Assembly (NCBI GenBank): GCA_018920365.1
Contig: JAHLMM010000001.1
Location: 4,449-68,448, forward strand
DNA: 64,000 nucleotides
Direction of reading: 5' to 3'
DNA from: Candidatus Aenigmatarchaeota archaeon
GTDB lineage: Archaea > Aenigmatarchaeota > Aenigmatarchaeia > CG10238-14
Made by a program: the position numbers and the translations under genes. This document shows, piece by piece, positions 13,838 to 34,014 of the stretch (its first letter is position 1; every line of letters starts with the position of its first letter). The notes beneath the pieces are model-generated. The model was not told the origin of the DNA and did not search any database. It saw only the letters and a program-made list of their open reading frames with translations.

Positions 13838-13874
13838 TTGAATGTTTTTAAAATTTCTTTATGAAAATAATTTT

Positions 13875-17694: not shown

Positions 17695-18846
17695 ATGAAA
17701 AAATATTGGTTTCTGTTGTTGCTGACCATAATAGGTATAGGTATATCTCAAAACATTTCTCAAGATGAAAATATTACAGAGTATAATGTATCCTTGAATT
17801 TGACAGCCGAAGATTTTATTCAAAATGAAACTTTTACAAATGAAACTTATAATATCACAATTGATAATTCAACAAATACAGAAAACACAACTGAAATAAT
17901 TGAAGAGTTTTATGACTATGGAAATATAACTTTAGAGATAAACAAAACAATCAATCTAGGCGATTTATTTTTCTTTAAAATAAACGGTAGCGCAAAAGCA
18001 AATTTCAGTGTCTCAATATCAAAGGACGGTGTTGACATTTTTGAAATGTATAGTATGACAGATGAAAATGGAATATTTATAGGAAATGCAAATATAACAG
18101 ACCAGGGACTTTACAGTATATCTGCTAATTATTATAATTATACTGTTAAAGATGTTTTTGAAGTTAAGGCTTACGAGTATAATCTAAATATAAGTTTTAT
18201 GCAAAATTATACTAAAAATGTGACATTTGAATTGATATACTTGCCTGATGTAGATATTTCCATAAAATTTGATTCTGTTAATCTTTCAAAAGTATATTTT
18301 GCTAGAACAAACCAGAATGGGTTTTATAGCTTTAATGATTTGTTTGAGCCTAACATGTATAATATATCCATTTTCTATAATAATGAATCAATCTACAACA
18401 ATACATTTTATGTTGAACCCTACACAGCTTCAGAAGATTTATCATATATAGTTTTGGATAATGATATAATTTCTGATGATGTAGCTTTTTCGTTTACCGG
18501 TTTTAATTTTACAATTGATTGTGCAAACCATTCAATAAATGCAAGCAAACATGGAATACTAATAGAAAACACAAGAGCCGTCACTATATTGAATTGTAAT
18601 ATTTTCGGTGGGGAGACTGCTATATTTGTGAAAGATTCTGACCAAATAAAGATTGAAAATGTCAATGCAAATCAAAATAAAAACGGCTTGATAGCAGTAA
18701 AGTCTGACAATATTGAAGTTAGATCAAGTAATTTTATGCGAAACGAGTTTTATGGTATGCTTTTCGTAAGGAGTGAAAATATTAGCGTGGAAAGCACAGA
18801 AACTGAAACAAGAACAAATTTAGATGTTCTAACTAGCTTGAATTAA
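17695..18846 (+). CDS. secreted sequon-rich protein with C-terminal right-handed beta-helix-like repeats
   Basis: Signal peptide 'MKKYWFLLLLTIIGIGISQ', dense N-x-S/T sequons, and a C-terminus 'GILIENTRAVTILNCNIFGGETAIFVKDSDQIKIENVNANQNKNGLIAVKSDNIEVRSSNF' that is NosD/pectin-lyase-like. Confidence 0.6.
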   Translation: MKKYWFLLLLTIIGIGISQNISQDENITEYNVSLNLTAEDFIQNETFTNETYNITIDNSTNTENTTEIIEEFYDYGNITLEINKTINLGDLFFFKINGSAKANFSVSISKDGVDIFEMYSMTDENGIFIGNANITDQGLYSISANYYNYTVKDVFEVKAYEYNLNISFMQNYTKNVTFELIYLPDVDISIKFDSVNLSKVYFARTNQNGFYSFNDLFEPNMYNISIFYNNESIYNNTFYVEPYTASEDLSYIVLDNDIISDDVAFSFTGFNFTIDCANHSINASKHGILIENTRAVTILNCNIFGGETAIFVKDSDQIKIENVNANQNKNGLIAVKSDNIEVRSSNFMRNEFYGMLFVRSENISVESTETETRTNLDVLTSLN

Positions 18847-18876: not shown

Positions 18877-21705
18877 ATGAAAATTGAATGGTTTGTTTTA
18901 ATAGCTATAATATTGCCGTCAGTTTTGGCTATTCAATGTACTATAAGGCAAAACTCATGCAATACTGGTGAGATATGTTTATTTTCTAGATATCAGGCTA
19001 ACAACACTCATGTAGGCAACTGTACAGCATATGGTAATTTGACATGCTGTTCTGATCCTTATCTTGCTAGAGCACAGATAAAAGCTTCATGTAATCTTGG
19101 CGAAAATGGTACTATATCATTATACAACTATACTAATTCTCATGCAGAAATCTATACTCAAGGCACATACAACTATAAAGTTTGCGTGGATTGTCCCTGG
19201 ATATGCACTTTGAGAGCAAGTTGTTTAAGCGATGAATATGCAATAGCGTCAATAAATGCTAGCACAAACGCACACATAGGAGAGCCTGGTTTTTATGCAA
19301 ATCAGGTTTGCTGCAAAAATGAGAATGTTCAACCAACTTATTCAAATCTCGGTGAAAATGCAACAGTAATAGATTATAATAGAGCTGTTAAGCTATACAC
19401 ATTATGGCAGGATAATGGTAATATATCTCATGCAATATTAGAAACAAATGAAACTGGTGTATGGCAGAATAAAAGTATATATGGATCTCCTTTATCAATC
19501 AGAGCTAATTCTGGATGGAGTAATTTCACATGGCAAAATTCTTCTTTTTCTGATATTTTGATAGGTTGGAGGATTTATGCAAACGATACATGCGGAAATT
19601 GGCATGTTACTCCCATCACTACATTCAGAGTCAATTCAATAAATCTCAATCAATGTCAAAATATCACGTCAAGCGGAAGTTATATTCTAACGACTGATGT
19701 GAGTGCTGTTGGTACATGTTTTAATATAACTGCTGTTAATGTTACGTTAAATTGTAATAAAAAGTCAATATCTTATGCTATTTCAACAATCGGTTATGGT
19801 GTTTATATTAAAAGTAATAATGTCACAATAACAAACTGCACAATTATAGAATCTGGATCATCATTAAATGATGATTCTTATGCTATATATGTTCTATCAA
19901 ATTATACAAAGATAATTGATAATAGTATAAGTACTGATGGTGTGTTTGATGGAGCAAGCATTCATGGAATTTATCTATATAATGCTAACAACAACACTAT
20001 AAGTAAAAACAATATATCAGTAGCAGGCGGGCTTTATGGAGGATATGGGATATTTCTAGATTCTAGTTCAAAAAACAATATAACTTATAACAACATAAAC
20101 AGCAGTGATAATTTAGCTATATATGTTTCCGGCAGTACTATGCAACATTTTGATAATTATATAGATACAACAAACACAGAATTTGGAAAAACTATTTATT
20201 ATTATTTTAATCAAAGTGATATAAAAATAGAAAATAAAGATGCGGGAGAAATATTCTTTGCATATTCTAATAAAACAATTGTAAACAATGTTACTCTGGA
20301 CAAAGATGGGATAATACTTTACAAAACAAACAATTCAATAATAAATTCAAGTGTAATAAAAACAGACAAAAATATTTACATAGAATCAGGAAACAATATT
20401 ACATTGATCAACAATATTATAAGAAATTTTTTTAGTAATGTTGTCTATTTTAATGGTTCGAGAATTATTATCTTAGCAAACAATAATATAACTTGCCATA
20501 CATCACTAAACGAAAGATGTATCTATTTTTCATTTTCAAACAATAATACCATCATAAACAACAATATAACAGATTATTATAGTGAGGGCAATGTCATTTT
20601 TTTAAGCAATTCTGTAAACAACACATTAAATAATAATAATATAACTGTATTTGGCTCTGGTTCATACGGAATTTTATTCCAAGGATCAAATAACACATTG
20701 ATAAGCAAAACAAATCTGAATGCTACTGGAGTTTCTTATGGTGTTTATATAAATTGGAAAAGCTTCAACATATCAATAATAAACAGCACATTAAATTCAA
20801 CTTTTAGTGATATTTCATTTAACGGTAATTCTTCTGTTCAAATAATAAATACAACTTTTAACAAATCTTCTGTTAGATGGTTATCACAATCTAACGCATG
20901 GATAAACGTTTCTTACTATGTTGATGTTTATGTAAGAAACAGTACAGGATCTGTTGATTCAGCTCAGGTTAATATGACAAATTATACAAATTCACTCGTG
21001 TTTTCAGGGCAGACAAATAGTAATGGTTATACGACTATTGTCTTATTACCTGAATTCTTTGCTAATGGCAGCTATAGCTATTCCTGTCCTTCGTCTCAAG
21101 CCAATTTGAGTTGTGCTAGTCCTTACAATTTTTCTGCATCTAAAGGAAGTTTATTTAATTCAACAATAGAATATGTAAATCAAAGTAAAACAATTCAAAT
21201 ATATTTTGAAAAAATACTTTCTGTAACACTTTCTAATAGATTAAGCGAAGGTATATTTTTCACAAATTCCGTCGGCTCACAAACAAACACACAAGGAGAT
21301 ATAGATATAACAAGATGGAATAATGGAACTTGGAATTATAATAATACACCGCAACCAGGCAATTTAAAAACTCTCTATTGGGTTTATAACAGCGGTAATA
21401 CTCCACAAGATATTTGTTTAAAGGCAAATGCTGATTTAACTTGCAGCCAAGGTGCATGTGCAACAAATACAATTTCAGTTACAAATATTGCATATACAAA
21501 TTCAACATACAATAATGCTACCCATCCTGTTTATGCTACAACAAATACTCTTAGTTTGAGCTATGTAAAAGTTGCAGAAAACGTTCAGCCGGGCCAATAT
21601 TACTATTTCAGATTTTGGCTTTATGGTCCTATAGGCAAACCTTCTGGAATTTACAACACAACATTTTCGGTAAGGAATGTAGAATCAGGATCTTCTTGCA
21701 ATTAA
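18877..21705 (+). CDS. large secreted adhesin-like protein: Cys-rich triple repeat, long parallel beta-helix, C-terminal 'A-domain'
   Basis: 942 aa with a signal peptide. Three copies of a '..S..N.TN(A/S)H(I/V/A)..Y...(V)CC'-type unit are present. About 450 aa of 20-25-residue beta-helix-like repeats follow ('NNNITV', 'NNTISKNNISV'). The C-terminal ~160 aa is paralogous to the ORFs at 31627 and 33364. Confidence 0.7.
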   Translation: MKIEWFVLIAIILPSVLAIQCTIRQNSCNTGEICLFSRYQANNTHVGNCTAYGNLTCCSDPYLARAQIKASCNLGENGTISLYNYTNSHAEIYTQGTYNYKVCVDCPWICTLRASCLSDEYAIASINASTNAHIGEPGFYANQVCCKNENVQPTYSNLGENATVIDYNRAVKLYTLWQDNGNISHAILETNETGVWQNKSIYGSPLSIRANSGWSNFTWQNSSFSDILIGWRIYANDTCGNWHVTPITTFRVNSINLNQCQNITSSGSYILTTDVSAVGTCFNITAVNVTLNCNKKSISYAISTIGYGVYIKSNNVTITNCTIIESGSSLNDDSYAIYVLSNYTKIIDNSISTDGVFDGASIHGIYLYNANNNTISKNNISVAGGLYGGYGIFLDSSSKNNITYNNINSSDNLAIYVSGSTMQHFDNYIDTTNTEFGKTIYYYFNQSDIKIENKDAGEIFFAYSNKTIVNNVTLDKDGIILYKTNNSIINSSVIKTDKNIYIESGNNITLINNIIRNFFSNVVYFNGSRIIILANNNITCHTSLNERCIYFSFSNNNTIINNNITDYYSEGNVIFLSNSVNNTLNNNNITVFGSGSYGILFQGSNNTLISKTNLNATGVSYGVYINWKSFNISIINSTLNSTFSDISFNGNSSVQIINTTFNKSSVRWLSQSNAWINVSYYVDVYVRNSTGSVDSAQVNMTNYTNSLVFSGQTNSNGYTTIVLLPEFFANGSYSYSCPSSQANLSCASPYNFSASKGSLFNSTIEYVNQSKTIQIYFEKILSVTLSNRLSEGIFFTNSVGSQTNTQGDIDITRWNNGTWNYNNTPQPGNLKTLYWVYNSGNTPQDICLKANADLTCSQGACATNTISVTNIAYTNSTYNNATHPVYATTNTLSLSYVKVAENVQPGQYYYFRFWLYGPIGKPSGIYNTTFSVRNVESGSSCN
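21215..21702 (+). other. C-terminal A-domain of the 942-aa protein (paralogue of the 31627 and 33364 gene products)
   Basis: Shared blocks are 'G(I/V)FFTN', 'WNYNNT/GNYNGT', 'YWV/YYV', paired Cys, 'Y(F/M)R(F/Y)W(L/I)', 'P(S)G(I/V)YNTT(F/Y)', and a Cys within the last 1-3 residues. Confidence 0.7.
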
Positions 21706-22899
21706 TGATATTTGTTGTTCGACCAAAGATTTTATTTCATCATTTCCATATTGCTCCCATATATAAGACAGGTAATATAAATTTCTTAAAAGATAATTTT
21801 CAGAATCGTTTGTCCATGAATTCAATTCTATTAGTCTGTTTCTCAATGATTTGATGAAATCTATTTGTGTCTGAATTTCTTCTTTTGTTGATAAAATTTT
21901 TAAAACGTCAACTGCTTGCAAAAATTTGAAATAAAGATCGCTCTTTTGATCGATTTTTAAATTGGTTTTTGAAGACAAATCAGATTTAACTGAATTCAAC
22001 AAAGATGTTATTTCGTTCAATGTGTTTGTCAGTCTCTTCTTCTCATCATCGATTTCCTTTTTAGCCTCTTGCTTAGATAGCTCAATTATTTTTTTAATTT
22101 CGCCCAAATAATTTTTGTTAACATTTTCTATATTTTTCTTTGTCATCTCCTCTATCAACTTTTCCACATTTTCTTTCTCAATCAACTTTGGTATTTTTAT
22201 GCTAATGCCATCAAGCATCTTAACTATATCAACTGTTAAATCATCCAATTTTTGAATTTTACCTTTCATATCTTCAACATCTTTCATCTTACTTTCCATT
22301 TCAGAAAATATTGTTTCAGATTTTCCAGCAAGCCTGTCAACATATAGTTTTGTATCGTCTATAAGCTGTATTTTTTCACTTAATTTTTTGTACATAGCTA
22401 CAAGATTCTCAATATTTTTTATCTTCTCCAAAATTGAATTTAGCCTTTCATTGTCTTTCTTTATAGAAGCCAAAACGTTTTTCAAAGATTCTGATTCAGC
22501 TTGCAATTTTAAAATATCTGCCTCTTTTTTCTGTAAATCTTTGTAAAACTTTTCAGGTTGAATTTGATTAACAGAATCCAAGACTTTTTCAACTCTTGAT
22601 TCTAGTGAAGTAAAGTTTTTGTCTAATTCTAGAAAGGATGATCTTAGTTCACCTATTTCCTCTGAGATTCTTGCTATCCTTTCATTTATATCATCTTTAA
22701 CATCTTCAAACGCAGAGAACTTGCCTTCTAATTTTTCTATTCTTAATAGCAAACTTAAAGGATTTGTATCTCCTTCTTGGACATTTTGTTTTTCTTGTTT
22801 GACAACTTCTTCTTGAACTTGCTGTTTTGGTATATCTTTAGTAACACCAAACTTGGCTTTTAATGCTTCCTTTTTATCATCTTTTTTAGGCAATATCAT
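21685..22899 (-). CDS. long coiled-coil protein, translationally coupled to the giant ATPase-bearing surface protein
   Basis: 404 aa. It is almost entirely heptad-like and rich in K, E, L and I, with no TM segment or signal peptide. Its ATG overlaps the TGA of the upstream gene (ATGA at 22896-22899). Confidence 0.7.
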   Translation of the reverse strand: MILPKKDDKKEALKAKFGVTKDIPKQQVQEEVVKQEKQNVQEGDTNPLSLLLRIEKLEGKFSAFEDVKDDINERIARISEEIGELRSSFLELDKNFTSLESRVEKVLDSVNQIQPEKFYKDLQKKEADILKLQAESESLKNVLASIKKDNERLNSILEKIKNIENLVAMYKKLSEKIQLIDDTKLYVDRLAGKSETIFSEMESKMKDVEDMKGKIQKLDDLTVDIVKMLDGISIKIPKLIEKENVEKLIEEMTKKNIENVNKNYLGEIKKIIELSKQEAKKEIDDEKKRLTNTLNEITSLLNSVKSDLSSKTNLKIDQKSDLYFKFLQAVDVLKILSTKEEIQTQIDFIKSLRNRLIELNSWTNDSENYLLRNLYYLSYIWEQYGNDEIKSLVEQQISLIARRS

Positions 22900-25800
22900 T
22901 TACTCAACCCTAATTTTTTATTTAGCGATTCGATATATATTTCTGCTACTCTGAACATTCCTTTCTTTAGTTTGTCTTTTGCCAGCTTTAACTCTATTCT
23001 CAAGTCAAATACATCTTTTCCTGTACTGGCTAGCTTCTCTATTTCCTGTTCTAATTTTTCAATTCTAGAATTATATTCTTTATACATTTGCATCTCTTGA
23101 TCTGTTATCTTGTGCGGCATATGCAGTGGCGGTCTGAATGAAATAAACCAAGGCATACCCTTGTTGTATTTTGGATTTTGTATCATGCCTATGCCAACTT
23201 CTTCCTTTGCAACTCTCCTAGCATATTCCAATCCATACTTCTTTTCAATTCTTTGCAAATCATTCAAGCTCTTCGTGTGCATTTGTATTTCTGTCAAAAC
23301 ATTACCTTTTATTGCTTCCTTGAAATCTGACAAAACTTGAGATGCCATTATTAAGCCGATACCCCACTTTCTAAATTCTCTGCATGCCCTTTCCAAAGCA
23401 ACATAACCGCCTTTGCCTCCATACTTTTCAAGCAATCTGTGAACTTCGTCAAAAACTATTATTAATCTTGGTTGCGTAGACTCTTCCCATGATTGGCTGA
23501 AAATGCTGTCAATAATATTTGTAACAGCCTCGTCATATTCACCTGGCTTCAATTTATTCAAAACAAACACTGTTATTTCACCAGGATTCATGTATTTCTT
23601 GAAATCTATTTTTGCTTTTGGATCTGTCATTTCATAGATATTTCCAGGATAGGATTTTGTATTGTCTATTGTTAACCCATGATTTTTATAATATTTCAAA
23701 ACATTCTCATCTTTGCATGGTTTGACAAAACCGGTCCATTGTGCTGTTGGATCAAAGACAACAACAGGTATTTTCTTTTCAAGCAACTCTTCTGCAAATA
23801 TGCTAGCTGAAACTGATTTTCCTGCACCTGTTGAACCAGCAACTATAATATGTGTTGTTATATCATTTGATGAAAATGTTGCTTTGATGTTTGTTTCAGC
23901 TACTTTACCTAAATGCAAATCACCTTGTGGCAACAATCCGAAATTAACTGGAAATATGTATCTGAGTTTTGATTTTTTCCATTGTATGTATTTTCTAACA
24001 GCAACAAAAGCTATTATTATTGAAAGTAAAGACACTATACCTATTATTATATATCTTAATGTTGCTGCTGTGATTATAGATGAAGATATGTCAAAAGTAT
24101 CTATTGCTGAAAGTTTACCATCAGAATAAGTTGCATTTACAACCACATAATACTTTCCAGAAGTTATATTTTCTGGTAAATGAATGTATTTCAATATTTG
24201 GTGTGGTGTTTTTATGCTTACCTGCTCAGTTTCAGTATAAATAATATCATCTTGCTTGAATCTCTGTATTGCATATGTTATCTCTGCTTCTATTTCTTTC
24301 TTTTGTGTTAAACTATAAAAACCGACTTCAAATGCCAATGTTTCATTTGGCTTGAGTGTTTTTGTTATTGTCTTTAAGCTTAATTGCAATTCAGATGTAT
24401 CTTTTGTAACAAATATTGTAATAGGTAATCTTTCACTCCTACCGCTTGAAACAACTATTTCGCCTGTGTATGTACCTACTTGAATATTTTCAGGAACATT
24501 TAGATCAATAACTACTTCTTTTTCTTTTGACGATTCAACGAGAACTGATTTTTGTCTTAGAGATAGCAGGTTTGATGCAGGACCATTGATAAGTATATTT
24601 GCTTGAATGGATTGAGACATTAGATTTGATATCCATAACGAATATGATTTTTTGTTTCCAGGATTAACATAATCTTGAGTTAAATTTGTCTTGACACTGA
24701 ATACACCTGTACAATCCTGTGGGCATGTGAATGGGTTTTCTGTTGTGTCACATATACCGTTGCCACAACTCTCTTTATAGCCACTGCTACCAGCACCACC
24801 AGCAGCAGAAGATACTGGTTGCTGCGTCATCCCAGTACCACCTGTTGAGCATTCTCCACAATCAGCCACACAATTTACACATGATTCTCCTGTTCCACAT
24901 ATAGAGTTTCCACAAATTTCTGCTTCAAAAAGATAATAAGCTGATGTACTGTTCTGTAAAGTAAATGCTTTGTAAGATGTAGAGTTTACTGTCGTGTTCA
25001 CCTCTTGCCATCCAGAACTGCATTGACCTGTCCAGTTTGAACATTTGTAAATGACTAACGCAGGTGCATAATCTATTTCTCCTATTTTTTTAGAATAATC
25101 AAATGAAACAGTTACATTTGAATATGCAAAGCTCGATGATATGTAAATTCCGGCGATTTCATGTCTCCATGGCACAGGAGGATTCAGAATTATCAACGGT
25201 ATTACAGATATGTTTAATGGGTTTGTTATATTTGAAACAGAACCAAACTGCTGTTTTGATGTTTCAGTTGAATTAAGATCATTAAAAATTATTTCATGCA
25301 TCTGGCTAGCGTCATCTTGTATCTCTGCATAGAGATCATAATTTCTTTGATGCAATGTCAAATTCTGCTGACCTGCTGGGTTTGTAAAGTTGTGTATAAT
25401 CTCATTCCTTCCTGGTCTATAAAACAAATATCTCACTGGATATGAAGTGTCGGCGTATAATTGAATTGTATCATAAACTTCAAACCAAGTTGAGTTTGAT
25501 GATGTATAGTTTGATGTATCATTGGCATACAAAATTATATCATAATCGCCAACAAAATTCATTTGGGTAAAATTTGAATACCAAACTGTTTGTTTTAAAT
25601 CACCTGTTGAGTTAGTCAAATAAATTGTCTGGTTAGTTCCATTTGGATGATAAACATCTATCCAAGCATGGCTTACACCATACCAATCTGTTATGTTTGC
25701 TGTGATTGATGTATTTCCTCCTTTCAATGTTGAATTTATCTTAATGCTGTTTATTTTAGGAGGTGTTGTATCTTTTTCTATAATAACTATATCTTTTGAA

Positions 25801-28800
25801 TCTTCTTTTTGAGAAGCATTATACTTTCTATAAGCATCTAAATTTTGATCTGTTATATTACACATTATAGTATATAATCCTTCAGGAACTGTTTGATTTG
25901 ATGATATATTCCACAAATAGTTTACTGTACCTGATGGGAAGATTGTATTCATGCTAGCAAGCTTGACAAAATTTCCGCCTTCGTATTTATACAATATATC
26001 CACACTATATGGATCTAACTTCACTAGAGTGTTATTTGCATCTGAAACTTCACAGGAAATATTTATTATCCTATTTGTCTCAGTTCTGTTAAAAGTTCCG
26101 TTAGAAGGTTGCAACAATTTTACTTGCGACCAACCATAAATGTTAATGTTTCTTGTTTGCGTATTTTGATTGTACAATTCGCCTGTTATTCTATTTGATA
26201 ATATTAATATGCCTGGGTTGCACTGTACATTCCATGTAGTATTAGTAGCTATGGTTGAATTGTAAATTGGTGGGTATGTTTGCGATGTACAATTAAAGAT
26301 CCATGTTGATGTGTATTGATGTTCTGGCACACCACAAGAATCCAAAATGTAAGAAGATAAATTCATTTCTTCTCCTTTGTGATATATTTCTGTAGTTAAT
26401 GGCGATAAAATTGATGAGTTTATGGTATCTTTTATAAACAAATTAATCAAATGCTGTTTTTGATCGAGATAATAATATGTGTTTGAAGATGATGGGAGAG
26501 AAACATTAAATTCATACAAACCTAATTGATACGAACATGATGGTTGAAACGAGATTTGACAAACGCCTGTAGAGTTTGTTGTGTTAGTACCTATCTGTGT
26601 TTGATTTATAATAAATGAACATTGCTGCCCTGATAACCTTATCTGCTGACCATATTCATCAAATATTCTTGCGCTTATTATCCTATTTTGATTTCTTGTT
26701 ATGTTTGATTGATAAATGCTTTGAGTGAAATTTACATTCATTTTTCCATACAAATATATTGTCTGATTTGAAGACAAGCTATCATTATAAATATTGTCAT
26801 TATAAACACCTACTCTCCACCATCTTAATCCTGGTTCATAACTTGAGTTAGGCGTGAAAAGATAATTGCAATAACCAGACGAGTTTGTTGATGTTTGATA
26901 GCCTAAATCCCATGATGTTTGATTTTTGCTTATCCAAAACATGCAAACTGCACTAGTTGCTGGTGAGTTGTCGATGCTATCATTTATATACGCACTCAAT
27001 AAAATAGACTGGGATCTATTTATATGAGATTCATTCCCTTGAACAATTATAGGTGCAGTTAAATGTTTTGTTACATTCGGACCATAATAAACATTGTAAT
27101 AGCTATAATCATGATATACAGTTTCATTTTCAAAATCGCTCAGCAAAAATGTCAAAATGTTATATCCTACCCATGTAGAATTTGTTTCAATTTCAAAATA
27201 TAGCTCTTCGCCATATATAGTGTTGGATGTCGTATTCTTTTCGCTAAAACATTGCCATGTGAGTTGTGATGTATTTATATCGTTTATGTCAAATGTTTTA
27301 GTCAAATTTATGCATGGTATTACAGAAATATTATTCCCTTCAGCATCACTAACATTAACATATACAGTAAAATTCCTTCCCCAAAAATTGTCTGAAGATA
27401 TGTTTACATTATTTATCACAGGTGGATTGTTTGCTGATCCAGATACTTCATAAATTGTGAATGTTCTGTTTGTGTCAGGCTGTTTCCAGGCGAAAAAATC
27501 TACTCTACCATCATTGTTTGTATCCTGTTTGCAAACAAAAAATGTATAGTTTTCTATACTAATTTCACTATAAGTTGGGTTTGAATTACAATTTGTTCTA
27601 GTTTGTGCTGGTGTTATATCATACAAAGTTCCATTGTTAAACCAATCAACTCTTAATTTAGAATTACCTGTTATGTAGTTTTCATCCAAAGATGTGCTCA
27701 AGATTATATTGGTGAATATTTGCGTTGTAGTATTCCAAACAGTTATATTTTTTTTCCAAAATCCATATTGGGCTACACCTTCTGTTTCGTTATAAAGTAT
27801 AGGTATGGATGAAGACATTGTATTGTCCCATATGAAATCATATGTCAGGTTTTGGTTTGAAAATATTGTTTTTGGTTTTGATGAAATATCACATACCTTG
27901 CTGCCTTGTAGTGTTATGACATTGAATCTAGTGCCGTTGAAATCGCATACTGTGGCAGAATTTGAAACTGCTATATATTTTATTTGAAAGTCGTGAGATG
28001 GATTTACTAAGTAATTTATCTTTTTTATTTGATTGCCAACACTTTCATTTGCTGCTATACTGTCATTTCTAGACCATTCTGAAGCTAAAGAAACATAAAA
28101 TATGTTTGTTATGTTATATGAATAAGATATGTTGATTTCATTTATTTTTAATATGCCATCAAAATCTGAACTAAAATTTAATGGTAATTGACAATACCCG
28201 AAGCTGTCAGGTGAGCATGAATTTATAAAATCTTGTACTTCTGAGTTAGCTGTTATGTTTGCTGATGATCTAAATTTACCTCCATATGACCATTCAATAT
28301 CGTTATCGCTGCTTATATCCAAAGTTACATTTGTTGGAAAATATTCAAAATTCAGTATATGTAAAGTATAAACAGCTGGTATTTGAGTTCCTGCAGCAAC
28401 TTCATTTCCAGGATCTGATGTAAGATTACCTATACCGACACCTTTAACATCATTTTCTGTTTTATATTTCCATACCAAATCACCGTCTTTGCTCACAACA
28501 TAGACATAATCATCGTAACTTCCTATTACAATTTCATTTCCATTATATTCTGTGGTCACTTCACCTATCTTCACATTGTCAATAGCTGCACCAGGAGAAT
28601 ATGACCATAATATGTTTAACTCATTATCTATCATATACAAAGTCCCATTATCTGTAACAACTGCTATCTCATCATAACCGCTATCATCTATATCCAAAAC
28701 ATCTATGTCGTTTATTAGATAGCCAATGTCTTTGCTGTTTATTAGATTTCCTGATGAATCTAAAATAAAGATGGTTGAACCACTTGATGCTGCTATTTCT

Positions 28801-29528
28801 TTTCCTGATATTGCATTCAGATTGCCTATACCCACACCTCTGAAAGGAAGAGATGAAGAATAATTCCATATTTCTGATAAAGAATTTGATAAAAGATATA
28901 CTTTATTGTCACCTGCAGCAACAGCTATCTCCTCATATTCATCACTAGTAACATCAGCCACCTCTATATCATATATAATATTATTCATCGATTTGTTTTG
29001 AATTTGGCTGCCAGTAGAGTTGAAGAGAAATATTTTTGAGCCAGATGACGCGACTATTTCTTTGCCCTTTTGTGAGCTCAAATTCCCAAAATTGACTGAA
29101 GAAACATCTGTATTTATACTATAATTCCATATTTGAAACCCTGAAGCATTTAACAGTCTTATATTATGTGATGATCCAGCAGTACCAATCAATATTTCAT
29201 CCCACGGTATATCTTCATTTATATTTCCAACTTTTAGATCTAGAACTTGCTCTTTTATAGTTGCGGCTATAGGCTTCATAGAACCTTCTATCCTAATTGA
29301 AGAGTTTATTATTGTAGAATTTTTTGGTAAATTTACCCAAAGTATCTTGGTTTCACTTCCATTAAAGTATATTTCTTTTGTATTTGAACTGTCATTAAAC
29401 TCTACAGTTGAAAAATTCATTACTGCGTCGTCCAAGTCAAATATAAAACTCTGCTGATTAACTGAAGTTACAGTAGAAATAAATATCACAATCAGTATTA
29501 ACAATAGCCAAAAACTACCATTCTTCAT
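22896..29528 (-). CDS. giant surface protein (2210 aa): signal peptide, FG-GAP-like propeller, long beta-rich sequon-rich ectodomain, Cys-rich modules, single TM, cytoplasmic HerA/FtsK-type P-loop ATPase
   Basis: One uninterrupted ORF. N-terminal 'FWLLLILIVIFISTVTS'. Repeated 'D(V/I)..D...EI(A/V)' propeller-like units. Modules 'CGTGESCVNCVADCGEC' and 'CGNGICDTTENPFTCPQDC'. TM 'YIIIGIVSLLSIIIAFVAV' followed by 'RKYIQWKKSK'. Walker A 'HIIVAGSTGAGKS', Walker B 'LIIVFDEVH' and 'GLIMASQ'. Confidence 0.8.
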   Translation of the reverse strand: MKNGSFWLLLILIVIFISTVTSVNQQSFIFDLDDAVMNFSTVEFNDSSNTKEIYFNGSETKILWVNLPKNSTIINSSIRIEGSMKPIAATIKEQVLDLKVGNINEDIPWDEILIGTAGSSHNIRLLNASGFQIWNYSINTDVSSVNFGNLSSQKGKEIVASSGSKIFLFNSTGSQIQNKSMNNIIYDIEVADVTSDEYEEIAVAAGDNKVYLLSNSLSEIWNYSSSLPFRGVGIGNLNAISGKEIAASSGSTIFILDSSGNLINSKDIGYLINDIDVLDIDDSGYDEIAVVTDNGTLYMIDNELNILWSYSPGAAIDNVKIGEVTTEYNGNEIVIGSYDDYVYVVSKDGDLVWKYKTENDVKGVGIGNLTSDPGNEVAAGTQIPAVYTLHILNFEYFPTNVTLDISSDNDIEWSYGGKFRSSANITANSEVQDFINSCSPDSFGYCQLPLNFSSDFDGILKINEINISYSYNITNIFYVSLASEWSRNDSIAANESVGNQIKKINYLVNPSHDFQIKYIAVSNSATVCDFNGTRFNVITLQGSKVCDISSKPKTIFSNQNLTYDFIWDNTMSSSIPILYNETEGVAQYGFWKKNITVWNTTTQIFTNIILSTSLDENYITGNSKLRVDWFNNGTLYDITPAQTRTNCNSNPTYSEISIENYTFFVCKQDTNNDGRVDFFAWKQPDTNRTFTIYEVSGSANNPPVINNVNISSDNFWGRNFTVYVNVSDAEGNNISVIPCINLTKTFDINDINTSQLTWQCFSEKNTTSNTIYGEELYFEIETNSTWVGYNILTFLLSDFENETVYHDYSYYNVYYGPNVTKHLTAPIIVQGNESHINRSQSILLSAYINDSIDNSPATSAVCMFWISKNQTSWDLGYQTSTNSSGYCNYLFTPNSSYEPGLRWWRVGVYNDNIYNDSLSSNQTIYLYGKMNVNFTQSIYQSNITRNQNRIISARIFDEYGQQIRLSGQQCSFIINQTQIGTNTTNSTGVCQISFQPSCSYQLGLYEFNVSLPSSSNTYYYLDQKQHLINLFIKDTINSSILSPLTTEIYHKGEEMNLSSYILDSCGVPEHQYTSTWIFNCTSQTYPPIYNSTIATNTTWNVQCNPGILILSNRITGELYNQNTQTRNINIYGWSQVKLLQPSNGTFNRTETNRIINISCEVSDANNTLVKLDPYSVDILYKYEGGNFVKLASMNTIFPSGTVNYLWNISSNQTVPEGLYTIMCNITDQNLDAYRKYNASQKEDSKDIVIIEKDTTPPKINSIKINSTLKGGNTSITANITDWYGVSHAWIDVYHPNGTNQTIYLTNSTGDLKQTVWYSNFTQMNFVGDYDIILYANDTSNYTSSNSTWFEVYDTIQLYADTSYPVRYLFYRPGRNEIIHNFTNPAGQQNLTLHQRNYDLYAEIQDDASQMHEIIFNDLNSTETSKQQFGSVSNITNPLNISVIPLIILNPPVPWRHEIAGIYISSSFAYSNVTVSFDYSKKIGEIDYAPALVIYKCSNWTGQCSSGWQEVNTTVNSTSYKAFTLQNSTSAYYLFEAEICGNSICGTGESCVNCVADCGECSTGGTGMTQQPVSSAAGGAGSSGYKESCGNGICDTTENPFTCPQDCTGVFSVKTNLTQDYVNPGNKKSYSLWISNLMSQSIQANILINGPASNLLSLRQKSVLVESSKEKEVVIDLNVPENIQVGTYTGEIVVSSGRSERLPITIFVTKDTSELQLSLKTITKTLKPNETLAFEVGFYSLTQKKEIEAEITYAIQRFKQDDIIYTETEQVSIKTPHQILKYIHLPENITSGKYYVVVNATYSDGKLSAIDTFDISSSIITAATLRYIIIGIVSLLSIIIAFVAVRKYIQWKKSKLRYIFPVNFGLLPQGDLHLGKVAETNIKATFSSNDITTHIIVAGSTGAGKSVSASIFAEELLEKKIPVVVFDPTAQWTGFVKPCKDENVLKYYKNHGLTIDNTKSYPGNIYEMTDPKAKIDFKKYMNPGEITVFVLNKLKPGEYDEAVTNIIDSIFSQSWEESTQPRLIIVFDEVHRLLEKYGGKGGYVALERACREFRKWGIGLIMASQVLSDFKEAIKGNVLTEIQMHTKSLNDLQRIEKKYGLEYARRVAKEEVGIGMIQNPKYNKGMPWFISFRPPLHMPHKITDQEMQMYKEYNSRIEKLEQEIEKLASTGKDVFDLRIELKLAKDKLKKGMFRVAEIYIESLNKKLGLSK
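22899..23996 (-). other. cytoplasmic tail: HerA/FtsK/VirB4-superfamily (DUF87-like) ATPase domain plus terminal coiled coil
   Basis: Walker A is at 23814..23837 (GSTGAGKS) and Walker B at 23439..23465 (LIIVFDEVH). The 'ASQ' motif occupies the position of the HerA 'ATQ' motif. I found no N-x-S/T sequon in this ~366-aa tail, whereas the ectodomain is full of them. Confidence 0.7.
23997..24053 (-). other. single predicted transmembrane helix of the giant protein
   Basis: 19 hydrophobic residues 'YIIIGIVSLLSIIIAFVAV' are followed by the basic 'RKYIQWKKSK'. By the positive-inside rule the C-terminal tail is cytoplasmic. Confidence 0.7.
24710..24925 (-). other. two Cys-rich 'CG.G.C' modules flanking a Gly/Ser/Ala linker (ectodomain stalk region)
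   Basis: 'CGNSICGTGESCVNCVADCGECS-TGGTGMTQQPVSSAAGGAGSSGY-KESCGNGICDTTENPFTCPQDC'. Confidence 0.6.
28330..29260 (-). other. FG-GAP/PQQ-like beta-propeller region of the giant protein (approximate bounds)
   Basis: Recurrent ~50-60-aa units: 'IWNYS..', 'GNL..GKEI(A/V)ASSGS.IF(L/I)..S.G', 'VADVTSDEYEEIAVAA', 'VLDIDDSGYDEIAVVT', 'IGEVTTEYNGNEIVIGS' and 'IGNLTSDPGNEVAAG'. Confidence 0.5.
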
Positions 29529-29566: not shown

Positions 29567-31558
29567 TTATTGATAGCCCAATCTTTTCTTTATGTTTTCT
29601 AGCTTTTCTTCAAATTTCTTTTCTTTGAACTTTCTATATCTCAAATATCCCACTATCGCAGCTATGATTGCAAAAATAGTAAGAAAAACTATTTCAGCCA
29701 AAGAATAAGAGTTATATTTTAATAAATGATCAATGCTGGTACAAAATTCCTCATAATTTTTCTTTTCAAGCTCATAATCTGCCTGATTTTGAAACTCACT
29801 TACTTTGGATTTAAAAGGAAATATCTTTAATGGATAAATCTTTAGTAATCTTTCCTTCATCAAAACATCTGCTTTAATATTAACAGACTCATAGTCACTT
29901 ATTATCTTTACAAAAAGTTCTTGTGATTTTTTATATTCTTTTGATTCCAGGTTTTTGATTGCTACATCCATTAGCTTCTCTGTTTCAACAAAGCGCTGGC
30001 TTAATTCTGTTAAATCTATACACTTCATCATCAAAGTTCTACTAGCATTTTTTCTAGCCTTTTCAGCTTCTTGGTAAAGCAGTTTTGCAAGCCCTTCGTC
30101 GTCTTGAGAAACTATAAACAGTAAATTTTCCTTGTTACTTTCAACAGAGTTCTTTGCTTTAACAGAAAAAGGATATACACCCTGTTTTGCATCAATTGGT
30201 GTTTTTATAAAAACTATTATATCAGTTTTATCACCTGCATTGATCTTGTCAATTTTGTATGGTGATAATGTTAACCATTCCAAAGGCAAGCCATCTATGA
30301 CTAGCTTAATGTTAGTCAAGTTTTTTGTGCCTGTATTTGTCAATGAGACAATAAAAGAAGACAAGTTGCCGGCAAGTGAAGGTATTTTATATCTTGAAAC
30401 ATTTATGTAAAGTTCTTTCTTTTCTTCTAACGGATATGATTGGCCACCTCCTCCACCGCCTGATGGCTGGGGTGGAGGCTGTGGTTGTTGACAAGGAATA
30501 ACATTGAATGTATCAGAGGAAGATATATTTACAGCCCAATTAGCTGTTGAAACATCTAATATGCTATAAAATGTATATATACCTTCAGGTGAATTTTGTG
30601 GAAGCCTTAATGTGACAAATTTTTCTAGCGTATCGCCAACGGCAATAGTTTCTTTTCTTTCTGCATATTTGTTACCAGCATATTCTAGTATATATGTCAT
30701 ATTCACATCGATTGGTTGGTCTGGGAAGACTTTCAAAACATTTACTTTAGCAGTGACATCACCACCTTGGCAAACTTCTTTATGTTGTGATATAACTTCT
30801 GTCTGTACATCAAAAATTGCAATAGTTTGAACGTGTATCGTGACTGGTATATAAAGTGTAACTTCATTTTGCATTGAGGCTATTATATATCCTGCATAGT
30901 CTCTAGGAATCGTATTCCATGGAAGATCAATGAATACACCTATTCTCGTATAATTCCATGTTTCAGGTGGCAGATATACTGGATTGGAGGAAAAATAAAT
31001 CCAATTAGCTACATCACCAGAAGTGTTGAGAAAGACATTTGCACCATAACAAGGAAATAAAAGCCACAGATAAAGATCTTCTGAAATGAAATCTCCTGGA
31101 AATACTGTCTTCTCTATAAAAGATGGTGAAGATACAAGGCTGCCATATCTTTGTTTTATTCTAAAATTTGTTTCATAGGTTGTTTTATTATTAAAATAGA
31201 CTAAATCAGTGTAAACATTATATATACCTGCTATATCTCCGTCAGAAACATTTTTTGTGAGAAAATAAAATCTTTGTTGTGTCGGCAGTATTTGTTGATT
31301 TTTCCATGTTTGGTTAGAATACAAAGAATTATATTGGTTGTAAATTGACTGATTTAATAAAAAAACTGTTTGATTGTTGCCAGCATTAGTCACATTAGTG
31401 GTTATATTAACAACATCACCTGGACAATATGAACTGCTTGTTGGCATTACACTCAATAACAGATTTGGATACATACCAACTGAAGAATTTATTGGTGATT
31501 GAGCGGCATTAACTACATTTAAGAATAGTAATATCATCAAAAATACAAGATTTTTCAT
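29567..31558 (-). CDS. secreted/anchored protein with CARDB/NEW3-like Ig domains, Pro/Gly linker, helical region and C-terminal TM (COG1470-like architecture)
   Basis: Signal peptide 'MKNLVFLMILLFLNVVNA'. 'GDVVNITTNVTNAGN' and 'LSSFIVSLTNTGTKNLTNIKL' are CARDB-like strands. Linker 'QQPQPPPQPSGGGGGGQS'. C-terminal TM 'IVFLTIFAIIAAIVGYL' followed by a basic tail. Confidence 0.65.
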   Translation of the reverse strand: MKNLVFLMILLFLNVVNAAQSPINSSVGMYPNLLLSVMPTSSSYCPGDVVNITTNVTNAGNNQTVFLLNQSIYNQYNSLYSNQTWKNQQILPTQQRFYFLTKNVSDGDIAGIYNVYTDLVYFNNKTTYETNFRIKQRYGSLVSSPSFIEKTVFPGDFISEDLYLWLLFPCYGANVFLNTSGDVANWIYFSSNPVYLPPETWNYTRIGVFIDLPWNTIPRDYAGYIIASMQNEVTLYIPVTIHVQTIAIFDVQTEVISQHKEVCQGGDVTAKVNVLKVFPDQPIDVNMTYILEYAGNKYAERKETIAVGDTLEKFVTLRLPQNSPEGIYTFYSILDVSTANWAVNISSSDTFNVIPCQQPQPPPQPSGGGGGGQSYPLEEKKELYINVSRYKIPSLAGNLSSFIVSLTNTGTKNLTNIKLVIDGLPLEWLTLSPYKIDKINAGDKTDIIVFIKTPIDAKQGVYPFSVKAKNSVESNKENLLFIVSQDDEGLAKLLYQEAEKARKNASRTLMMKCIDLTELSQRFVETEKLMDVAIKNLESKEYKKSQELFVKIISDYESVNIKADVLMKERLLKIYPLKIFPFKSKVSEFQNQADYELEKKNYEEFCTSIDHLLKYNSYSLAEIVFLTIFAIIAAIVGYLRYRKFKEKKFEEKLENIKKRLGYQ

Positions 31559-31626: not shown

Positions 31627-32220
31627 TTGAAAAAAATTATTTTCATATTTCTAGTGATTTTAGTACTTATTAAAACAAACGAATCTGCTGATTTTGAAAT
31701 GAATGCTACAATAGAAAGTTCAATTCATTATTATATACAAACTAGTAGTCAACTTTCAAAAGGCATATTTTTTACAAATTCCACAGGTGCTGAGCAAAAT
31801 GTTCAATATAATGTCATTCCTGGCAGTTTCAACAACAATGCTGTGTGGAACTATAACAATACAGATAAAAAAACTGAATATTGGGTTTATGTTTATATTC
31901 AAGGTGCGCAAATAAATGTATGTCATGGGGCAACAAATCATTTATGCTCTAACCCAGGTTGTATAGGGTTTGACAATTATTTAATAAACATAAATAATGC
32001 TAAATGGAGTAAATCTACTTCAAACGACATTAACAACCCTTCTTTATCAAATGCTTTGCCTTTTGTCATTGGTTTTGACAATCAAAATAAAATAGCTGAC
32101 TTGACAAACAATTCACAAACAATTTACTTCAGATATTGGTTAGATATTCCACCAAGCGTTCCACCTTATATCTATAATACAACTTATCAAATAATAGGTG
32201 TTGTAGAAGATGAATGTTAA
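31627..32220 (+). CDS. secreted A-domain protein A1 (putative surface-filament/adhesin subunit)
   Basis: TTG start with an AGGTGA Shine-Dalgarno element. Signal peptide 'MKKIIFIFLVILVLIKTNES'. Blocks 'GIFFTNSTG', 'WNYNNT', 'YWVYV', 'CSNPGC', 'YFRYWLDIPP..PPYIYNTTYQI', ending '..EDEC'. Confidence 0.7.
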   Translation: MKKIIFIFLVILVLIKTNESADFEMNATIESSIHYYIQTSSQLSKGIFFTNSTGAEQNVQYNVIPGSFNNNAVWNYNNTDKKTEYWVYVYIQGAQINVCHGATNHLCSNPGCIGFDNYLININNAKWSKSTSNDINNPSLSNALPFVIGFDNQNKIADLTNNSQTIYFRYWLDIPPSVPPYIYNTTYQIIGVVEDEC

Positions 32221-32770
32221 AATATTATTTTTATTAATATTGATGCCGTATGTTACTGCTTCTGGAGTAGGTATATTCCCTTTAAATGAAAATGTCGAAA
32301 TTAAACCTTTTCAGAGATTTAGAACAAATATTTACTTGTTTAATCCATCAAACGATGATGTTTTTGTTTACACAAATGCGTCTTGCTTCATTAATGGAAA
32401 AGTATACGACTATATAAACTTTTATCCAAAAGAGTTATCCATAAATAAAAATACTTCTATACTGGAAGCAAAACCTATAATTGTATCAATACAAAATCCA
32501 CTTTTCATTGAAAATAACCAAAGTATTTTTAATTACAATGTTTTGTTTGGAGAAAATAAATTAAAATGTAGATTTTATGCGAAAACAAATGACACAACAC
32601 CTATTATTGTTACATCAAATATCAATGTTATATTAATTGGAATAAATTTAGCAAAACTCGGTTTAATTGTGTTTACCCTTCTTGTGTTGGGTTATTTTGG
32701 TATAAATAAAATAGGCAAAAAGAGCAAAAAATATACAAAGAATTATAAAACTCATCATAGGCATACCTGA
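32210..32770 (+). CDS. B1: signal peptide, beta-rich (Ig/PapD-like?) domain, C-terminal TM anchor
   Basis: It overlaps A1 by 11 nt. 'ASGVGIFPLNENVEIKPFQRFRTNIYLFNPSNDDVFVY', TM 'LGLIVFTLLVLGYFGI', and a Lys/His-rich tail. Confidence 0.6.
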   Translation: MNVKILFLLILMPYVTASGVGIFPLNENVEIKPFQRFRTNIYLFNPSNDDVFVYTNASCFINGKVYDYINFYPKELSINKNTSILEAKPIIVSIQNPLFIENNQSIFNYNVLFGENKLKCRFYAKTNDTTPIIVTSNINVILIGINLAKLGLIVFTLLVLGYFGINKIGKKSKKYTKNYKTHHRHT

Positions 32771-33352
32771 TGCATTTATTTCTATTGTTGAGCCAACTGA
32801 AGGGGTTACACCCATTTCACCAAAACTGGACGCATAAACATCTGCAACAAGTAGCCCTTTGAAACTTTTTTGCCCAATGAAAAGACTATAGTATGGAATG
32901 GCAATATAATTTTCATATTTCTTGTTAAAAACTTTGACAAAAAAATTGAAAAATTCAGGAGTATAAAGTTTCAAATAATTTTTTAAAATAAATTTTGGTG
33001 AGAAAGTAATCTTAACAGCAGGTGCATCACTGCCCATAGTTGATGGATTGATTGTTATATCTTGTTTATCAATTGTGAAAAATGATCTATAGTCTATAGT
33101 TTTCTCACCTATTTTGTGTCCAAATATTTTAACATCTTCTGTGCAGTCTTTGCAATCAAAGTAAACTTTGGCTTTTACCTCATAAATAGAAGGATTTGTT
33201 AATCTTACAACTGATGTGTAATAATCAAGTACGCTACCTGTTATATTGATATAATATGTGCTTATTCCTATGCCTACTCCATCCATACTTTGTACAGATG
33301 GAAAAATTGACAATATAAAAATCAAAATAAACATTTTCACTTTTGATTTCAT
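32663..33352 (-). CDS. B2: signal peptide, beta-rich domain, C-terminal TM anchor (distant paralogue of B1)
   Basis: ATG chosen at 33352 (the ORF track starts at a GTG at 33361). 'SMDGVGIGISTYYINITG..VVRLTNPSIYEVKAKVYFDC', TM 'MMSFIILCIFFALFAYFIY' and tail 'TKITQHKKGKHN'. Its 3' end overlaps B1 by 108 nt on the opposite strand. Confidence 0.6.
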   Translation of the reverse strand: MKSKVKMFILIFILSIFPSVQSMDGVGIGISTYYINITGSVLDYYTSVVRLTNPSIYEVKAKVYFDCKDCTEDVKIFGHKIGEKTIDYRSFFTIDKQDITINPSTMGSDAPAVKITFSPKFILKNYLKLYTPEFFNFFVKVFNKKYENYIAIPYYSLFIGQKSFKGLLVADVYASSFGEMGVTPSVGSTIEINASGMPMMSFIILCIFFALFAYFIYTKITQHKKGKHN

Positions 33353-33363
33353 ATAAATCACTA

Positions 33364-34014
33364 TTAGCAGCTACATGTACCAAATGATGAAAATACTTCT
33401 ACTGCTCTTATTTTAAATGTAGTGTTGTATACACCTGAAGGTGCTGAATTTGGTCTTGGATCTATCCAGTATCTCATGTAAATATAACTGTTTGGTGTAA
33501 GATTGCCTGCTATTGGTTGATAATCATCAACTGCCTGGAAATAATAGTTTGTCGTGTCAGGTGGTGAATGAACTGAAAATGTCGGTGTTGTACCATTTGC
33601 CCAGCCAACACCACCATCGGCTGCATAAGCTACATATAGTCTATCTGTACCTACTGCACAATCGCCTGACCTGCATAGAAGGTTTTCACATGCACAATGT
33701 GCAACTTTAACATCAATAGTGTTACCAGCACATGCTTGAACATAATATGTTGTTCCAAATGAAGTTCCATTATAGTTTCCAGTAGCATTGTTTAAAACTG
33801 TCATTACAGTTATAGGATACTGTACGCCCATTGTTGTTCTGTTTGTGAAAAATACACCAGCTGAATAATTTCCTGATAATTGAACGCATATAGGCTGTTG
33901 AATACTAGCATTCATATCTGCTCTGAATTCCTGCTGTCCCAAAATAGTAGTTAACGAAAGCCAAAATGATAATAATACGGTCAAAATCAATGAAACAAAC
34001 AAACGATCGTTCAT
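33364..34014 (-). CDS. secreted A-domain protein A2
   Basis: Signal/TM 'LFVSLILTVLLSFWLSLTTILG'. Blocks 'GVFFTNRT', 'GNYNGT', 'YYVQAC', 'CRSGDC', 'YMRYWIDPRPNSAPSGVYNTTFKI', ending '..GTCSC'. Confidence 0.7.
   Translation of the reverse strand: MNDRLFVSLILTVLLSFWLSLTTILGQQEFRADMNASIQQPICVQLSGNYSAGVFFTNRTTMGVQYPITVMTVLNNATGNYNGTSFGTTYYVQACAGNTIDVKVAHCACENLLCRSGDCAVGTDRLYVAYAADGGVGWANGTTPTFSVHSPPDTTNYYFQAVDDYQPIAGNLTPNSYIYMRYWIDPRPNSAPSGVYNTTFKIRAVEVFSSFGTCSC

Follow-up and report, generated by a model that had tools for sequence, protein, structure and literature searches.

Pilin-like and membrane-anchored PapD-like proteins in a gene cluster of DPANN archaea that probably builds adhesive fibres

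What is made by two gene pairs that lie as mirror images in the genome of a Candidatus Aenigmatarchaeota archaeon? The question was raised by a 64,000-nucleotide (nt) stretch of contig JAHLMM010000001.1 (assembly GCA_018920365.1, positions 4,449 to 68,448; hereafter the window), in which each pair encodes a predicted secreted protein (A1, A2) and a protein ending in a transmembrane helix (B1, B2). A sequence-only reading, made without database searches, had proposed that each pair specifies the subunit of a surface fibre and a membrane-tethered chaperone or anchor for it. Here we report that A and B are two new protein families with a putative pilin-like and a PapD-like fold, respectively, that they belong to a cluster found in four DPANN lineages, and that this cluster probably builds adhesive fibres. 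In the arrangement that we prefer, and to which we give a probability of roughly 0.55, a tip adhesin, then A subunits and finally a third protein, C, as the anchor would be joined by donated strands, with B acting as the chaperone.

Conservation of the A/B pairs

The four open reading frames (ORFs) on which the sequence-only reading was built were all found (Table 1). Their surroundings in the window include RFC subunit genes and DUF424, the GC content is ~31%, and the nearest homologues are in Aenigmatarchaeota. A1 starts with TTG, 8 nt 3' of an AGGTGA ribosome-binding site, and overlaps B1 by 11 nt; on the opposite strand, the A2 stop precedes the B2 ATG by 11 nt. An alternative GTG start for B2 exists at 33361, upstream of GVG (ORF 32663-33361), but the ATG at 33352 is the likelier one, since homologues begin with MK. 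B1 and B2 converge and their 3' ends overlap by 108 nt (32663-32770), so that the Lys-rich cytoplasmic tails of the two proteins are encoded on opposite strands. Among related loci, this overlap ranges from 0 to 108 nt.

Each B is the cognate partner of the adjoining A, B1 of A1 and B2 of A2. The gene order A2> B2> <B1 <A1 C> was kept in 12 of 12 related Aenigmatarchaeota-type loci, with B1 always downstream of A1 and C following A1 in every one of them, and this identity of order places the four-gene arrangement far beyond chance. In GCA_017880035.1, the B2 orthologue (locus L001, 10722-11382) is broken into two ORFs of 132 and 54 amino acids (aa), which is due to a frameshift or to faulty assembly. 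A ParA/MinD-like ATPase gene adjoins the cluster in some Aenigmatarchaeota loci (L002, 9137-9931; L011, 1570-2343; the clustering gave five such loci); we noticed none beside the cluster in the window, where no search was aimed at one.

Adding 77 loci from a second scan of Woese-, Pace-, Nano- and Aenigmatarchaeota genomes to the 12 of the Aenigmatarchaeota type gave a set of 89 loci, and all 89 retrieved from the genome collection were archaeal. A was present in 85 of them, a B-type protein in 83-84 and a C-like protein in ~78, where a B-type protein was called by a signal peptide ending in ..AGVGI.., a ~150-aa ectodomain, a transmembrane helix and a basic tail. The sequence-only reading had made its case depend on A and B being neighbours in other genomes as well, and the two genes lie adjacent on the same strand in 76 of the 89 loci, spread over four DPANN lineages. 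The stand-alone A genes, one to three in number, are the element conserved most widely, and proteins in which an A domain is fused to an adhesin flank it in 52/89 loci. With Afus denoting such a fusion, the commonest gene order is Afus> A> B> C>. Apart from A, B and C, no gene family is conserved across the 89 loci, nor is any usher-like or other pore family among those conserved. The mirror duplication, like two further neighbours in the window, a large ATPase-containing protein (D) and its 404-aa coiled-coil partner, is confined to the Aenigmatarchaeota type. The duplication is a lineage-specific elaboration, and the real unit consists of the proposed tip adhesin, A, B and the proposed anchor C. 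Searching the literature for PapD-like proteins, donor strands or chaperone-usher systems in DPANN, we found no earlier description of the cluster.

Folds of the A and B proteins

A1 and A2 had been taken for paralogues because of a series of shared motifs. They are indeed paralogous (BLASTP E = 1e-19, 32% identity across 198 residues), and every one of the motifs was recovered by regular expression: GIFFTN/GVFFTN, WNYNNT/GNYNGT, YWV/YYV, CSNPGC/CRSGDC, YFRYWLDI/YMRYWIDP, ..YNTT(Y/F).I and a terminal Cys, the C-terminus of A2 being CSC. A1 has six N-glycosylation sequons and A2 eight. Homologues of A2 in Aenigmatarchaeota number 29, and A1 matches the hidden Markov model (HMM) of the A family at 7e-57. 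A profile search of 1.84 billion representatives yielded 159 representatives of the family, most of which are stand-alone proteins of ~190-230 aa. About 20 are long (440-2108 aa) and end in the A domain, which is preceded by Laminin_G_3, beta-helix/NosD or DUF2341 domains. In a subgroup of ~290-aa proteins (e.g. P0101, P0107, P0120), a ~100-aa cytoplasmic coiled-coil extension stands N-terminal to a segment that spans the membrane; here the A domain would be anchored in the membrane, and part of the protein would lie inside the cell. That neither A nor B could be placed in a named domain family was confirmed for both: neither gave a match in Pfam (including PapD_N/PapD_C and the fimbrial families), NCBIfam or PDB sequences, with single queries or with profiles.

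The AlphaFold2 model of A2, built on 23 homologues, reached a predicted local distance difference test (pLDDT) score of 88.7 and a predicted template modelling (pTM) score of 0.76. It contains a signal helix (3-24), a less confident segment (25-43) and a beta-sandwich (~75-206), and A makes up one domain of ~170 aa. A resemblance of A to donor-strand pilins, suspected from its last strand, reappeared in the fold comparison, but weakly: the best 50 Foldseek matches of A2 in the PDB are mostly chaperone-usher pilins (FimA/FimI, PapE, CsuA/B, CfaB, Caf1, CupE), with E-values of 1e-2 to 1e-1 and TM-scores of 0.3-0.55. FimA/FimI was matched at 9.8e-3 with a probability of 0.98, and CsuA/B with a TMt of 0.54. 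The archaeal donor-strand subunits CanA and Saci_0406 (9hdi, 0.037; 7pnb, 0.071) are also found among these 50, and CBM32 and the F17-G lectin domain appear among the lower-ranked matches. Two Cys residues are invariant in the A family, one in a central 'VDxC' and one at the C-terminus. Their conservation suggests an intramolecular disulfide that would staple the last strand of A, and this predicted bond would account for the terminal Cys of A1 and A2.

One other candidate for a relative of A was set aside. PDB 9rkt_A (a 230-aa 'Structural protein', 60 chains), the sole entry to turn up among PDB sequences, was matched by profile at E = 0.044, which is not significant, and the capsid-like reading that it suggested was rejected because a Foldseek search of the BFVD viral structures gave no coherent match. 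The weak match to 9rkt_A covers lrFvLgvsPaakPadiYr, which resembles the RYWLDPxPxxxPxGxYN motif.

The position of the A domain, which in the large adhesin-like proteins invariably closes the chain in the manner of sorting and anchoring domains, raises the possibility of surface display without polymerisation. A would then be a C-terminal docking or anchoring module, possibly lectin-like and permanently bound to B or C, which would hold large adhesins on a cell without other anchoring systems, and the stand-alone A proteins would act as small lectins of the cell surface or would regulate docking. The transmembrane helices at the ends of both B and C, the CBM32 and F17-G lectin domains among the lower-ranked fold matches and the confident A2 monomer model (pTM 0.76) are in line with such a role. 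We nevertheless consider it unlikely, since it leaves unexplained that stand-alone A is the most conserved element (85/89 loci), that pilins and not lectins or carbohydrate-binding modules lead the fold matches of A, and that A and C share a co-varying peptide after the signal peptide (see below).

B1 and B2 have in common, as had been pointed out, a signal peptide, GVGI, (F/T)NPS and a C-terminal transmembrane helix with a basic tail. Compared directly, their similarity is marginal (E = 0.041); they align end to end via intermediates such as the B1 protein of locus L002, and jackhmmer searches started from B1 or from B2 converge on the same ~125-128 proteins. These connecting homologues mark the two as divergent paralogues. 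The sequence links first obtained between the B of Aenigmatarchaeota and that of the Woese-type loci were driven by the signal peptide and the transmembrane helix, and an HMM restricted to the ectodomain of Aenigmatarchaeota B retrieved no Woese-type B. When the signal peptide and the transmembrane helix were trimmed from both, hhalign aligned the two with Prob 95.5 and E = 1.6e-8 over 134 columns; negative controls gave Prob <=2.2 and an A-to-A positive control 99.8. A homology between B and C suggested by jackhmmer links was discarded, as these were driven by the last strand and the transmembrane helix (HMM positions 185-229).

The AlphaFold2 model of B2 (pLDDT 89.4) consists of a beta-sandwich (37-198) followed by a helix (202-231). 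Foldseek returned 58 matches at E<=1e-3, and all of them are PapD-like, ASH or MSP folds. The top match is the PapD-like domain of CEP192 (2.3e-5, TMt 0.64, probability 1.00); pilus chaperones are represented by FimC (8.3e-5), CfaA, Caf1M and FaeE, and the other matches include the ASH domains of HYDIN and OCRL, MSP domains and WxLIP (9i1y, 1.3e-4). The likeness to PapD-like chaperones that had been read from the opening strands of B is thus also found at the level of the fold. A2 and B2 were modelled independently, and the two fold assignments point to partners of one known system.

A peptide common to A and C, and the neighbouring genes

A and C are otherwise unrelated, and both carry the same peptide directly after the signal peptide (Table 1). 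In A2, residues 34-47 are nearly invariant, with M34, N35, A36, I38, Q40 and I42 invariant or nearly so, and this block has a pLDDT of 61-78 versus ~90 in the core, which makes it the least confidently placed extracellular segment of the model. A peptide that is near-invariant yet placed with low confidence is what is expected if the strand pairs in trans. In Aenigmatarchaeota, the peptide of A and C reads [MI]N[AS][ST][IV] followed by alternating hydrophobic residues, and the expression [MIFV]N.[ST][IVL], defined post hoc, is matched by 24 of 25 stand-alone A proteins, 11 of 12 C proteins and 0 of 106 other ORFs. B does not have this motif.

In the Woese-type loci, the peptide of A and C takes the form (I/L)TG[FHY][AV]T..x..SNV[ST][IV]..[FY]. 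When an HMM of the Woese-type A N-terminus was run against 1435 ORFs, its 12 best non-A matches (E 1e-4 to 1e-2) were C-like N-termini at the same position, one of them only positionally equivalent. In a third lineage, a sublineage of the Woese type (L056, L059, L062-L064, L067), the Asn of SNV[ST][IV] has been lost in A and C alike, A having SSAVI/SQVTI and C having TSATI/SQATI. This joint loss argues for a shared structural partner and not for a shared glycosylation site. A donor-strand role was also considered for the N-terminus of D and dropped, as only an [MF]NF[ST] sequon is conserved there.

C is the proposed membrane anchor or terminator. Its Ig (immunoglobulin)-like domains are of the NPCBM_assoc/CARDB kind (Pfam NPCBM_assoc, 2.9e-7) and, together with the coiled coil and the C-terminal transmembrane helix, they resemble the stalk proteins of surface layers (S-layers). 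From this resemblance one might suppose that A, B and C are envelope or S-layer-associated glycoproteins, that is, beta-sandwich wall components with C as a SlaB-like stalk, whose likeness to pilins and PapD would be due to the ubiquity of Ig-like folds; the high sequon density and the weak fold E-values of A would also fit. This seems to us quite improbable. B matches specifically PapD-like domains (probability 1.00) and not generic Ig folds, A matches specifically pilins despite the vast excess of other Ig-like chains in the PDB, and a strict A-B pairing with cognate duplication would be unexpected for bulk wall proteins.

The proposed tip adhesin of the window is a fusion in which the A domain forms the last ~170 residues (21196-21702) of a 942-aa beta-helix protein. 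Directly upstream of it lies a 383-aa secreted beta-helix ORF without an A domain (17695-18846, + strand), possibly a fragment of a paralogue or a second part of the adhesin.

Between the adhesin and C lies D with its coiled-coil partner. The ectodomain of D contains a beta-propeller, Cys-rich knobs and Ig-like domains, the transmembrane helix comprises aa 1827-1844 (23997-24050), and the ATPase is encoded at 22896-23993. The DUF87/HerA domain and a Walker A motif (AGSTGAGKS at residue 1897) make D a member of the HerA/FtsK P-loop ATPases, with a topology that is unusual for this type. Pfam gave DUF87 (7.6e-12; 46.2 bits versus a cut-off of 23.2), HerA_C and Beta-prop, and HerA helicases of the PDB were matched at 6e-8. 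The best NCBIfam match was CedD, a DNA-translocating ATPase; the CedD and HerA equivalog models score far below their cut-offs. The overlap between the start of the coiled-coil gene and the stop of D suggests that the two are probably co-transcribed, and the coiled-coil protein is conserved downstream of D in L011 (E = 5.5e-40).

D adjoins the cluster in all eight Aenigmatarchaeota-type places with enough flank (the window and seven related loci), and its membrane-proximal Ig-like modules recur in C. Both observations, together with the HerA/FtsK-like ATPase and CedD as its best match, albeit one far below the cut-off, could be explained by an ATP-driven trans-envelope machine in which A, B and C would serve D and the coiled-coil partner, e.g. 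as a conduit for DNA or other macromolecules or as a host-contact device, instead of forming an autonomous fibre. We regard this as very unlikely. No match to the D ATPase domain was found within the 6 kb flanks of any of the 77 Woese-, Pace- and Nanoarchaeota-type loci (called Woese-type here), so that the A-B-C core exists without D and D is not required for its function. Moreover, the single-pass anchoring of D offers no obvious channel.

A 281-aa protein is encoded elsewhere in the window (13842-14687, + strand). With its signal peptide, ectodomain, transmembrane helix and C-terminal winged helix (DUF7343/MarR/TrmB), it has the appearance of a transcription regulator tethered to the membrane.

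Table 1. Genes of the cluster and candidate strand segments, with their coordinates in the window.
Feature	Coordinates	Strand	Length	Description
A1	31627..32220	+	197 aa	ORF; predicted secreted pilin-like subunit, Sec signal peptide
B1	32210..32770	+	186 aa	ORF; short PapD-like protein, signal peptide, C-terminal transmembrane helix, basic tail
B2	32663..33352	-	229 aa from ATG	ORF; PapD-like fold, C-terminal transmembrane helix
A2	33364..34014	-	216 aa	ORF; predicted secreted pilin-like subunit
A1 post-signal peptide MNATIESSIHYYIQTS	31699..31746	+		candidate donor-strand segment
A2 post-signal peptide MNASIQQPICVQLS	33874..33915	-		candidate donor strand
C N-terminal A-like peptide INSSVGMYPNLLLSV	31448-31492	-		matches A-type motif
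C	29567..31558	-	663 aa	signal peptide, A-like N-terminal peptide, Ig-like domains, coiled coil, C-terminal transmembrane helix
Adhesin-A fusion	18877..21705	+	942 aa	secreted beta-helix protein; A-family HMM 6e-27; Pfam Beta_helix/NosD
D	22896..29528	-	2210 aa	signal peptide, ~1800-aa ectodomain, single transmembrane helix, cytoplasmic HerA/DUF87 ATPase
Coiled-coil protein	21685..22899	-	404 aa	cytoplasmic; start overlaps D stop by 4 nt

The proposed fibre and its relation to known systems

In the fibre that we propose, A, B, C and the fused adhesins would be exported by Sec. A1 and A2 would be cleaved, N-glycosylated and stapled by a disulfide at the C-terminal Cys, giving pilin-like beta-sandwich subunits. 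For B we infer a chaperone activity: tethered by its C-terminal helix to the membrane's outer face, it would cap or stabilise its cognate A after export and hand it to the growing fibre, as FimC and PapD do and as has been proposed for PamC/D (see below). The subunits would be chained head to tail by strand exchange, the N-terminal peptide of each one inserting as a beta-strand into the preceding subunit. As to polarity, the fused lectin or beta-helix adhesin, having only an acceptor A domain, would make up the distal tip and accept a strand like FimH, and C would donate the final strand, its coiled coil and transmembrane helix holding the fibre on the cell. The two A/B pairs of Aenigmatarchaeota would provide two subunit types, each with its cognate chaperone. 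The fibre might be long, or it might be merely a short adhesin-A-C stalk.

Several observations weigh against this arrangement. None of the Foldseek matches of A2 in the PDB reaches E<=1e-3. B has one PapD-like domain only (~125 aa in the ectodomain of B1) and not the two-domain boomerang of pilus chaperones, and the PapD-like fold also occurs in many proteins that are not chaperones (MSP, ASH). With regard to the shared peptide, the motif count in Aenigmatarchaeota comes from the regular expression chosen post hoc, and a peptide HMM made from mostly Aenigmatarchaeota A2 N-termini failed to retrieve the N-termini of C. The fused adhesins keep a strand just N-terminal to the 'LS..L..GI.F' core, and an N-x-S/T-I element is kept as well in 12 of 38; part of the putative donated 'extension' of A may therefore be an ordinary first strand. 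The original proposal of a subunit with a membrane-tethered chaperone or anchor finds support in fold, architecture and conserved gene linkage; B has a single domain, and the unit exceeds the four genes first considered.

Compared by architecture only, the closest analogue of the cluster is the Pam pilus of bacteria of the candidate phyla radiation (CPR). Pam pili are made of the pilins PamA/PamB, with PapD-like chaperones PamC/PamD that have a C-terminal transmembrane helix, a tip protein PamT and an anchor PamR, and have no usher; the pilins consist of two domains (a nine-strand sandwich, a strand that acts as linker, and a truncated Ig domain), PamR is a membrane-anchored terminator that inserts its N-terminal strand into the last pilin, and the system has been reported to be exclusive to CPR (bioRxiv 10.64898/2026.03.03.709456). 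Two paralogous Ig-like subunits are found in both, as are two PapD-like proteins that end in a transmembrane helix instead of being soluble and are encoded beside the subunits, a likeness that holds at the level of architecture only. The membrane-anchored PamR, with its additional N-terminal strand, would have its candidate counterpart in C with its A-like peptide. Both systems lack an usher or dedicated pore and occur in ultra-small organisms of the episymbiont type. On the other hand, PamC/D have two domains and B only one, PamA/B are two-domain pilins whereas A is one domain of ~170 aa, and Pam is bacterial whereas the 89 loci described here are archaeal.

The chaperone-usher pili (Fim, Pap, Csu, CFA/I, Caf1) resemble the cluster in the fold class of A, as given by the weak Foldseek matches, in the PapD-like partner encoded beside the subunit and in the conservation of an N-terminal segment that follows the signal peptide. 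A tip adhesin of the FimH type, with a region for receptor binding in front of a pilin-type domain at the C-terminus, is likewise found here in the fused adhesins. In contrast to these pili, no usher or pore family is conserved among the neighbours in the 89 loci, and C and D have no match to Pfam Usher; an outer membrane is absent from archaea. B has one domain and is anchored in the membrane, whereas the PapD/FimC chaperone is soluble and has two domains. The predicted disulfide of A, which would pair the central 'VDxC' with the C-terminal Cys, the N-glycosylation of the subunits expected from their sequons and the proposed anchoring by a transmembrane protein, C, are further differences. 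With no usher and no two-domain soluble chaperone, the cluster is therefore not a member of the chaperone-usher family.

Donor-strand filaments are known in archaea, namely threads (Saci_0406), the bundling pili of Pyrobaculum and haloarchaea (AbpA, TasA-like) and the cannulae of Pyrodictium (CanA). Their subunits, which are exported by Sec or Tat, are glycosylated beta-sandwich proteins with an N-terminal donor strand, for which the A peptide would be the candidate counterpart. The view that these subunits are unrelated to A was supported, in that no sequence relation of A to Saci_0406, AbpA/TasA or CanA was found with Pfam, NCBIfam or PDB profiles. For the Sulfolobus thread, no chaperone or usher could be recognised in the gene cluster, and the cannulae have been described as free of chaperones; the cluster reported here differs from them in its strictly linked PapD-like partner, its tip-adhesin fusions and its transmembrane anchor. 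By its PapD-like beta-sandwich, B2 belongs to the PapD-like/MSP/ASH superfamily, of which WxLIP, the enterococcal WxL-interacting protein, is like B a membrane-anchored surface protein. These proteins, WxLIP included, have no sequence similarity to B and, to our knowledge, are not paired with pilin-like subunits.

A more far-reaching interpretation is that DPANN archaea own a chaperone-assisted donor-strand pilus that is convergent with, or anciently related to, the chaperone-usher and Pam pili, and that in Aenigmatarchaeota this pilus is coupled to D, which would connect contact with the host to ATP-driven processes, namely assembly, retraction or the transfer of macromolecules or DNA between symbiont and host. 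We hold this to be rather improbable in its full extent.

The attachment of DPANN archaea to their hosts is an open question, and the cells are ultra-small, mostly uncultivated and thought to be mostly host-dependent. For this step, the cluster offers candidate adhesin, shaft, chaperone and anchor proteins that are conserved in Woese-, Pace-, Nano- and Aenigmatarchaeota. The chances are slightly better than even that it specifies a previously undescribed, DPANN-wide archaeal donor-strand fibre that has a chaperone and is built from new protein families. If this is true, a PapD-like assembly chaperone would be known for the first time from an archaeal surface fibre. The sole precedent for usher-free, membrane-tethered chaperones is the 2026 preprint on CPR bacteria (bioRxiv 10.64898/2026.03.03.709456), so that the two great episymbiont radiations would share one solution.

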